Notes under the pieces: generated by a model
Databases searched by the model: none
What the model saw: only the letters and a program-made list of their open reading frames with translations
What the model was told of the DNA's origin: nothing
Virus record (IMG/VR): IMGVR_UViG_3300007790_001480
Location: 1 to 7,535 of that record
Direction: 5' to 3' (one strand)
Source of the DNA: a virus
DNA: 7,535 nucleotides
Part shown: positions 4,834 through 5,217 of the stretch, one piece after another
How the letters are laid out: each line of letters begins with the position of its first letter
How positions within the stretch are numbered: the first letter of the stretch is position 1
Translations under genes and position numbers: made by a program

Positions 4834-5217
4834 TTAGCGATAAGGTTCGTCTAAGTGGATATGCTGAGCACATGAGCGAATTACCTCATGTGCAAATTTT
4901 TCTTGTTGAAAAATGAAAACAATGTCATGGCCCAAATGTCTATGCATAAGCAGTTCATTAACTTTGGTAATAGATTTCGAACATGCACAAAAAGTCGGTA
5001 AATGTTCACAACCGTCATAAATAATAAATGCAGGTCCATCTATAAGAGTCCAGTCATCAGAGGGAATCTGTTTGAAAGATTTAGGCAGATATGATTTATC
5101 TGATGTGTTGTCGACAATGTTTGAATAGACAGGTTTTGTCTGATCAAGAGCGATAGCCATTTCTATTGCTTTAGAGGTTTTGCCGGAGTAGGGACGACCA
5201 GTAATCAAATAGATCAT
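4834..5217 (-). CDS. Stand-alone Zot-family P-loop NTPase domain protein (127 aa), a paralogue of the N-terminal domain of the 499-aa pI/Zot
   Basis: Walker A is MIYLITGRPYSGKTS (nt 5176-5199). Other shared blocks are VYSNI, PSDDW..DG..FIIYD and ELLMHRHLGHDIVFIFQ..HEV..QHIHL. All are collinear with the equivalent blocks of the large Zot protein. It has no TM segment and no C-terminal domain. Confidence 0.85.
   Translation of the reverse strand: MIYLITGRPYSGKTSKAIEMAIALDQTKPVYSNIVDNTSDKSYLPKSFKQIPSDDWTLIDGPAFIIYDGCEHLPTFCACSKSITKVNELLMHRHLGHDIVFIFQQEKFAHEVIRSCAQHIHLDEPYR

Follow-up and report, generated by a model that had tools for sequence, protein, structure and literature searches.

Why should a filamentous phage that encodes a complete assembly ATPase also carry a second, short gene for the core of the same enzyme? 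This question is raised by positions 1 to 7,535 of the IMG/VR virus record IMGVR_UViG_3300007790_001480, a stretch of 7,535 nucleotides (nt) which we analysed whole and refer to as the window, and which represents the entire circular 7,444-nt genome of an inovirus, as shown by a perfect 91-nt direct terminal repeat (1-91 = 7445-7535). In addition to a full-length gene I protein (pI/Zot) of 499 amino acids (aa), the window contains a 127-aa open reading frame (ORF) which an initial annotation had read as a stand-alone Zot ATPase domain, and which we call mini-Zot. The reading we favour, at a probability of roughly 40%, is that mini-Zot is a non-catalytic, nucleotide-binding paralogue of pI which acts in trans on the pI-based assembly machine.

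Mini-Zot scores 38.7 bits against the Pfam Zot profile (PF05707; gathering cutoff 20.3, E = 9.6e-10, profile positions 1-141 of 197), the check suggested at the outset, and matches phrog_197, ‘Zot-like toxin’, with E = 9e-15. Its relatives P0004, P0006 and P0009 also exceed the Pfam cutoff, with P0008 just under it at 20.2. By BLASTP it shares 32% identity over 74 aa with the co-resident pI (E = 7e-10), 9 of 18 residues being identical in the N-terminal P-loop, and all of the sequence blocks that had been aligned by eye with the ATPase core of the 499-aa protein were found. The sole significant PDB sequence match is the N-terminal domain of a Neisseria Zot (2R2A, residues 7-150 of 199). An AlphaFold2 (AF2) model built from a nine-sequence family alignment (predicted local distance difference test (pLDDT) 81.8; predicted template modelling score 0.79) has strands at residues 2-7, 30-32, 64-67, 98-103 and 118-122 and helices at 13-23, 83-95 and 111-116; mini-Zot is, as modelled, a complete five-strand P-loop core that stops five residues past its last strand, without the last ~55 positions of the Zot profile, the transmembrane segment or the periplasmic domain. 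A Foldseek search of the PDB with this model ranked 2r2a_A first (E = 3.2e-5, probability 1.00, query TM-score 0.67), followed by KdpD-N, the STIV2 B204 packaging NTPase and AAA+ cores, and inovirus Zots rank first in a structural search of BFVD. The highest 19-residue Kyte-Doolittle mean is 0.7 in mini-Zot against 1.8-2.65 in full-length Zots, and mini-Zot is expected to be soluble because it has no transmembrane segment. The initial picture of a soluble protein consisting of the ATPase domain therefore stands as regards the missing membrane segment, but not as regards its extent, as the chain covers only part of the profile and ends after the last core strand rather than at the end of the Zot domain. 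Mini-Zot had no match to other families in Pfam, NCBIfam, PHROGs or PADLOC; the best entry in PADLOC-DB was mad8 (E = 0.0048, 14.4 bits, over the P-loop region), which is not a significant defence match, and membership of a defence system was rejected because this match does not rise beyond noise.

The nucleotide site combines a kept P-loop with an altered Walker B motif. Within the family the only exception in Walker A is L014 (SLKT, with Leu for the second Gly), a position where aromatic or other residues are also found in full-length Zots. Phe, for example, takes this place in the full-length Zots of L004 (6041-7336, GKPGSFKT), L006 (12747-13931, AAPGSFKS) and L014 (5978-7255, GKPGSFKT), comparable to the Tyr reported for CTXphi Zot. 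The latter, reported to be a very poor ATPase with a Tyr in Walker A and bulky Phe residues before D-E (10.1101/2022.09.21.508815), is like mini-Zot in having Zot-family nucleotide-site residues off consensus, but differs in being full-length, membrane-anchored and the only pI homologue of its phage, with D-E kept. The D-G-C-E reading of Walker B, noted initially for the window, is borne out by translation and extends to the whole family: D-[G/S]-C-E occurs in all eight loci, and D-A-C-E in P0011. In an alignment of 142 full-length Zots guided by a hidden Markov model (HMM), the Asp is present in 141, the Glu at the next position (D-E) in 141 and a Gln at +3 in 127. Judged from these alignments, no family member keeps the catalytic Walker B Glu, and all have a Glu (E71) in place of the Gln that is conserved at +3 in full-length Zots, a pattern that suggests altered catalysis. 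A Cys/His cluster (GCEHLPTFCAC) that had been noted next to Walker B is unsupported as a metal site and was rejected: only C70 is invariant, C77 occurs in three members, C79 in the window only, and H72 alternates with Tyr, whilst full-length Zots commonly (50 of 142) have a Cys at the position of C70. In the HRH-G-D region H94, H97, I99, I102, F103 and Q104 are invariant, and residues 98-103 form a strand in the model. The feature that best sets the family apart is its loop of residues 33-57, with 15 invariant positions (N33, I34, D36, N37, D40, S42, L44, P45, K46, F48, K49, I51, D55, W56 and T57) which, except for the DDW, have no counterpart in full-length Zots. The loop has no regular secondary structure in the AF2 model (pLDDT 69-75) and is a candidate family-specific interface.

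Further short Zot-domain genes, which the initial annotation had suggested looking for, do exist, so that the gene is not unique: it was found in at least eight loci, and three independent lineages resemble it (see below). The mini-Zot family is restricted to one lineage and comprises ~13 distinct sequences of 127-145 aa from Acinetobacter-type inoviruses and prophages in independent samples. A word-indexed search returned 10 clusters (95-139 aa, 55-100% identity), one annotated in Acinetobacter bereziniae and another, partial, in Acinetobacter sp., and IMG/VR contributed two additional members of 139 and 145 aa. In an exhaustive HMM search of 1.84 billion representatives the family fell into a single cluster at 50% identity (P0011, 239 bits), and the other 200 matches were, with few exceptions, full-length Zots of 285-530 aa at no more than 65 bits. 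Searches of GTDB species-representative genomes, JGI metagenome contigs and NCBIfam gave no result.

Mini-Zot is a real gene under purifying selection and no remnant. Pairwise ratios of nonsynonymous to synonymous substitution (dN/dS) over the eight loci range from 0.07 to 0.30, with dN = 0.083, dS = 0.568 and omega = 0.146 for the least saturated pair, the window and L002, and the start, the stop region and the length are conserved across the ~13 sequences. A non-functional remnant, i.e. a 5′ fragment of pI that survived a recombination or deletion event between tandem prophages, or else an artefact of annotation or assembly, could be argued from the frameshifted or contig-end fragments that do occur among the short Zot matches (P0016, P0035, P0059, P0115 and P0139) and from Vibrio phage VSK, where tox1 is half of a split pI. 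Yet synonymous sites in mini-Zot are free to vary under low dN/dS, its length is kept in independent samples, Shine-Dalgarno (SD) sites precede it in relatives, its conservation exceeds that of the essential pI, and an intact pI is encoded in the same genome, which is complete and circular; dN/dS, kept length and SD sites effectively exclude a pseudogene, and we regard this explanation as highly improbable.

Among the module genes compared over the eight loci, mini-Zot is the best conserved, with a mean pairwise amino-acid identity of 67% (range 58-84), against 37% for pI, 31% for the small transmembrane protein, 31% for pVI, 27% for the coat protein and 25% for pIII. As dS is saturated in most pairs for mini-Zot and pI alike, whilst dN differs 3-4 fold, this gap reflects constraint rather than recency, and recent horizontal spread alone is an unlikely cause of the high conservation. 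The exception is the pair of the window and L002, where dS is lower for mini-Zot (0.57) than for pI (1.50), which points to some mosaicism. Mantel tests on the identity matrices show that pI varies together with pVI (r = 0.80, p = 0.008) and with the coat protein (r = 0.86, p = 0.01).

Mini-Zots share ~24-40% pairwise identity with full-length Zots and match best the pI N-terminal domains of the L004/L006/L014 type (31-39%), and the best match of the window mini-Zot in the phage collection is Pf3 ORF301. By these comparisons the family is old and tightly conserved, and not a close paralogue of the co-resident pI; a recent duplication of the pI in the window was rejected, as the two proteins share 32% of residues over 74 aa and Pf3 ORF301 is the phage protein matched best. 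The proposal of a second paralogue of pI holds in that mini-Zot is a separate gene of the Zot family, but it scores higher against Pf3 ORF301 and the pI N-terminal domains of other phages than against its own pI.

Three additional lineages of short Zots without a transmembrane segment were found. P0012/P0161 (127 and 132 aa, canonical YDECQ; loci L015, L016 and L021) belongs to a different inovirus lineage with its own 445-aa Zot, and is preceded by a Phage_CRI Rep and a 57-aa ORF, with the coat-region genes following it. P0030 (142 aa, YDDCH; L017) is followed by a 70-aa transmembrane protein of the same small-protein type as in the window family and then by a Phage_Coat_B gene. In three independent assemblies (L018-L020), P0107 (161 aa, YDQAHH) has DUF2523 on one side and a complete 342-aa Zot on the other, and to this adjacent Zot it is 53% identical over 148 aa. 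By BLAST, P0012 shares 41-46% identity with full-length Zots (105 bits, compared with 79 bits against the window family), P0030 54% and P0107 48-53%; as all three are nearer to full-length Zots than to the window family, the short lineages are polyphyletic, and a single ancient mini-Zot clade was rejected. The Walker B Glu is lost in three of the four short lineages, to Gly, Ser or Ala in the window family, Asp in P0030 and Gln in P0107. P0107 shows a route of origin in which only the 5′ part of gene I is duplicated in tandem, and the window family would have arisen in the same way with possible later relocation. Of the family members, the L004 mini-Zot is the one most similar to its own pI (38.7% identity, E = 4e-21), and this locus may preserve a comparable tandem arrangement.

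We compared the genomic context of the window and its related loci, with readable context in the eight family loci. In seven of these, mini-Zot heads the structural module in the order [Rep], [gene at the single-stranded DNA (ssDNA)-binding-protein position], mini-Zot, a transmembrane protein of 61-66 aa, coat, pIII-like, DUF2523 and full-length Zot; the exception is A. bereziniae (L004/L005), where mini-Zot lies directly 3′ of the full-length Zot. A full-length, canonical Zot (YDE[AV]Q) accompanies mini-Zot in all eight. This agrees with the placement first described for the window, between the gene at the gene V position and the coat-region genes and beside a complete pI/Zot.

We propose that mini-Zot binds nucleotide and has no motor function, and that it would serve the pI assembly/export machine in trans, as a regulator or a non-catalytic subunit. 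It could dock on the cytoplasmic face of the complex, or occupy a ligand or site used by the pI N-terminal domain, and would so control how fast or when virions are extruded. The repeated recruitment of the same domain, once adjoining pI itself, and the convergent loss of the Glu argue for a non-catalytic role related to pI. Non-catalytic ATP-binding paralogues are known from other P-loop assemblies: in F1-ATPase the alpha subunit stands beside the catalytic beta subunit and its catalytic Glu is likewise replaced. Mini-Zot would resemble F1 alpha in being a duplicated P-loop domain which has kept its P-loop and lost the catalytic carboxylate, but a mixed oligomer with pI would be hypothetical, and mini-Zot does not co-vary with pI. 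Among the roles suggested in the initial annotation (regulator or partner of pI, dominant-negative factor, ssDNA hand-off) the data favour that of a non-catalytic regulator, with each of these roles a matter of interpretation; a reading as an arms-race decoy is weakened because mini-Zot evolves slowly, and one as a DNA-binding protein because its calculated isoelectric point is acidic.

Several observations weigh against such a role on pI. Contact between the two proteins is something that we infer, and the invariant E71 at +3 could restore catalysis, so that the label ‘hydrolysis-impaired’ is unproven. Mini-Zot shows no correlation with pI in the Mantel tests (r = −0.05, p = 0.58) or with the other genes (0.00-0.09), the mini-Zots of the window and L002 are only 27-32% identical to their own pI over 64-74 aa, and mini-Zot accompanies three Rep families (Rep_1-like in the window, Rep_trans in L002, L006 and L004, Phage_CRI in L009) and several pI subtypes. 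The range of Rep and pI types, the missing co-variation, a conservation above that of pI and the low identity to the co-resident protein all speak against a tightly co-evolving hetero-oligomer, and the last three keep two other explanations alive. The P0012 lineage retains the canonical D-E. Furthermore, the L024 phage (P0084), whose pI is close to that of the P0030 lineage, has no mini-Zot, the 125-aa ORF before its coat gene being unrelated, and mini-Zot is therefore dispensable for inovirus assembly in general and not universal. A broader version of our proposal, in which soluble non-catalytic pI cores are an unrecognised, recurrently evolved part of the filamentous-phage export machine that controls chronic extrusion, either in a mixed ring with pI (or a pXI-like partner) or by gating pI, is one that we consider doubtful.

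In the first of these explanations, mini-Zot would be a neofunctionalised small nucleotide-binding protein that targets something other than the pI machine, either a conserved host factor or a step in the hand-off from replication to packaging, acting for instance on the ssDNA-protein complex or recruiting a host protein, so that its Zot ancestry would be historical. The most conserved gene of the module, which does not co-vary with the phage structural genes, would fit a conserved, non-structural partner; it usually lies right after the gene at the ssDNA-binding position, its invariant loop is family-specific and absent from pI, and deep divergence from full-length Zots followed by slow change, a burst and then constraint, is typical of a new function. 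However, the calculated isoelectric points of the family (5.6-6.6) and the lack of an extra domain offer nothing that points to DNA binding, no other family was matched in the four databases searched, and independent lineages recruited the same pI N-terminal domain, one of them adjoining pI, which points back to a pI-related role. On balance we judge a target outside the pI machine rather unlikely.

The second explanation concerns competition between phages. L004 (A. bereziniae GCA_006334895.1, SIRG01000062.1) and L009 carry tandem arrays of two to four different inovirus prophages with differing Rep (Rep_trans, Phage_CRI) and Zot types, which are a setting for recombination and competition between inoviruses, and at least two zot genes occur in ~38% of zot-positive A. 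baumannii genomes (PMC11209303). Mini-Zot could here interfere with other phages, as a dominant-negative ‘poison subunit’ or decoy: a hydrolysis-dead pI N-terminal domain that would join the assembly ATPase of inoviruses competing in one cell, or soak up a ligand of that ATPase, and spare its own, divergent pI. Loss of the Walker B Glu, in three of the four short lineages, is the classic ATP-trap change, the distribution over Rep and pI types is mosaic with a moved position in L004, and the mini-Zots of the window and L002 are nearer to foreign pI N-terminal domains than to their own. But the slow, uniform evolution of the most conserved gene (omega about 0.15-0.2, identity 58-84%) bears no arms-race signature, and no plausible target with a matching interface is visible, as no full-length Zot among the 1.84 billion representatives exceeds 65 bits against the family profile and pairwise identities to full-length Zots are ~24-40%. 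Similarly, the Zots of the neighbouring prophages (L004b, L009b and L009c) are no nearer than others, P0107 has its own adjacent pI as nearest relative (53%) and would poison itself, and PADLOC defence families gave no match beyond noise. We regard interference as unlikely.

With the pI/Zot proteins (PF05707; Ff gene I protein, CTXphi Zot, Pf3 ORF301 and 2R2A) mini-Zot shares the P-loop fold and the motifs MIxLITG-P-SGKT at the N-terminus, DDW, hhhhD and HRH-G-D-hhhh-Q. It differs in its truncated profile coverage and replaced Walker B Glu, in being additional to a complete pI and in usually heading the structural operon rather than following gene VI; of the features that define the pI class and the Zot domain, it lacks the transmembrane segment(s), the C-terminal periplasmic domain, the full Zot domain and hhhhDE. 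In Ff, translation from an internal, in-frame start in gene I yields pXI (Rapoza and Webster 1995, as cited in 10.1101/2022.09.21.508815). It resembles mini-Zot as a second, partial pI-related product beside full-length pI, but it comprises the membrane and periplasmic regions of the C-terminal half, made from gene I itself and lacking the ATPase. Mini-Zot corresponds to the other half, is encoded by a gene of its own that diverged long ago and lies ~2.2 kb from gene I, and does not fit the pXI type. In Vibrio phage VSK (L022, NC_003327), the pI at 5023-6188 is annotated as two overlapping ORFs, tox1 (orf145; 145 aa, Zot profile 1-138) and tox2 (orf243; 243 aa, no Zot match), which is either a true split or a sequencing frameshift. 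VSK tox1 shares with mini-Zot its C-terminal boundary (profile ~138) and a structural match to the model, and the split boundary suggests, unless it reflects a sequencing frameshift, that the core is autonomous and able to act in trans with the membrane part. Whereas mini-Zot is an extra paralogue, tox1 and tox2 adjoin each other after a pVI-like gene and together make up the only pI of VSK; in the window pI is complete (2664-1165) and the ORF that follows mini-Zot is a transmembrane protein in another frame. Pf3 has one Zot (ORF301 = pI, 87.6 bits; ORF430 = secretin), and no second Zot-like place was found in any isolated inovirus of the phage collection, the 25 phage records matched by tblastn having one each, which agrees with the earlier statement that Ff, CTXphi and Pf carry one pI/Zot gene.

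The pI-like clusters in the survey of Roux et al. 2019 were required to have one or two transmembrane domains (PMC6813254), which would exclude mini-Zots, and marker-based surveys would have missed these genes because of this demand; whichever role applies, inovirus annotation pipelines that demand a transmembrane segment overlook them. Papers on A. baumannii filamentous phages discuss Zots of 354-414 aa alone. The initial annotation had allowed that short Zot genes might already be characterised in related phages; our literature search found no description of a short, stand-alone Zot-core gene without a transmembrane segment, and the mini-Zot gene appears to be previously undescribed.

Of the core components of filamentous-phage assembly, pI/Zot is the one understood least, from its oligomeric state and ligands to the way in which ATP use is coupled to extrusion, and a soluble, strongly conserved nucleotide-binding core would be a tractable protein for biochemistry and structure of the pI N-terminal domain. 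Short copies of Zot have evolved on at least four occasions, mostly with inactivation at the catalytic Glu, and so offer a natural genetic probe of the ligands of that domain. Biofilm and virulence traits of Acinetobacter have been associated with its filamentous prophages (PMC11209303, PMC12285184), and if mini-Zot does regulate extrusion it would bear on the tuning of chronic, non-lytic infection in this genus; if it instead interferes with rival inoviruses, it would represent a new kind of exclusion mechanism.

The features of the window are collected in Table 1; its long ORFs are without exception on the minus strand, and two further small ORFs complete the gene list.

Table 1 Genes, motifs and signals of the window, in the order in which the minus strand is read
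Feature	Position	Strand	Remarks
Rep, 432 aa	7087-5789	-	Weakly Rep_1-like (21.8 bits, under cutoff 33.2); phrog_11698 strong
Promoter-like site TTGACA-17-CATACT	5522..5550	-	5′ of 78-aa gene; 10/12 consensus matches
78-aa gene	5240..5476	-	At ssDNA-binding-protein gene position; phrog_21135 (unknown function), E = 3.5e-31
Weak SD-like AGAGA	5228..5232	-	10 nt 5′ of mini-Zot ATG
Mini-Zot, 127 aa	4834..5217	-	14.5 kDa; calculated isoelectric point 6.35; ATG start, TAA stop
Walker A / P-loop GRPYSGKT	5176..5199	-	From translation; G7, G12, K13 and T14 invariant in family alignment
Residues 33-57 (NIVDNTSDKSYLPKSFKQIPSDDWT)	5047..5121	-	Long loop between core strands 2 and 3
Walker B strand FIIYDGCE	5005..5028	-	Asp kept, catalytic Glu to Gly, +3 Glu
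HRHLGHDIVFIFQ	4906..4944	-	From translation; Zot-family HRH-G-D motif and fourth core strand, ending in Gln
62-aa protein	4626..4814	-	C-terminal transmembrane segment; directly 3′ of mini-Zot
Major-coat-like gene, 96 aa	4322..4612	-	Last in operon; weak matches to Phage_Coat_B and phrog_1646; aligns with coat genes of relatives
Terminator-like GC-rich hairpin and T-run	4292..4311	-	Directly 3′ of coat gene; 8 pairs, 6 G-C
pIII-like protein, 419 aa	4209-2950	-	
DUF2523/pVI-like protein, 102 aa	2969-2661	-	
Full-length pI/Zot, 499 aa	1165..2664	-	Walker A APPGVGKT; Walker B FYDEVQ; transmembrane segment near residue 288

The 499-aa pI/Zot scores 47.1 bits against the Pfam Zot profile, which aligns to residues 157-278 only, there being an insertion of ~130 aa after the P-loop (residues ~20-150); the Zots of L002, L004 (12078-13607) and L009 (18264-19868) have an insertion at the same place. 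The Rep contains a CxxxxCxxC motif (CGSVWVCPVC) around residue 79 and a faint zf-BED match. The label ‘gV-like’, previously given to the 78-aa gene, finds no support in sequence similarity, as BLASTP detected none to Pf3 ORF78 (the Pf3 ssDNA-binding protein) and its PHROG family is without known function. There is no secretin (pIV) gene in the window, and the phage therefore presumably uses a host secretin. Rfam and tRNA scans of the window were empty, and megablast of the whole window against the phage collection gave no match. A 51-aa ORF at 7523-7368 lies partly within the 91-nt repeated segment.

The small transmembrane gene directly follows mini-Zot in six of the eight family loci (L013 is unresolved) and in the P0030 lineage. 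Its family (window 4626-4814; L002 10409-10594; L004 3407-3607; L017 448-660) is marked by an N-terminal ‘YVC...C..W’ Cys pair and a C-terminal transmembrane segment, the window protein being very divergent (15-27% identity), with a single Cys and without the pair. In the relatives, the N-terminal Cys pair and basic residues after the transmembrane segment suggest an N-out topology, and the protein is probably a minor virion-tip protein. The idea that mini-Zot and the 62-aa protein form a split, membrane-anchored ATPase was set aside as the frames differ in all loci (in the window, 403 nt separate the two starts), and it is also disfavoured by L004, where the genes are unlinked, and by L015. 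In the latter the ORF after the P0012-lineage mini-Zot (8387-8560) encodes 57 aa, is extremely acidic (D/E-rich) and has no transmembrane segment, and so differs from the small transmembrane protein of the Acinetobacter lineage.

The promoter-like and terminator-like sites are consensus matches from which function is predicted. The promoter-like site probably drives an operon of the 78-aa gene, mini-Zot, the 62-aa gene and the coat gene, which by analogy with Ff would place mini-Zot within a heavily transcribed unit from gene V to gene VIII. Five relatives have SD sites (AAGGGG or TAGGGGG) 6-8 nt before the ATG, and that of the window is weaker. An inverted repeat with a 9-bp stem (GCACATGAG...CTCATGTGC) at 4868-4893, in the 3′ part of the mini-Zot gene, scanned as terminator-like on the plus strand; by eye the stem appears kept in the aligned L002 and not in more distant relatives. 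Finally, a 30-nt element with tandem TGTTGTCATGTTGTCATGT is present in two copies (5515-5544 and 7162-7191, 83% identity), each of which overlaps one of the two best minus-strand promoter-like sites, those of the 78-aa/mini-Zot/coat unit and of Rep, and may be a shared promoter or operator.

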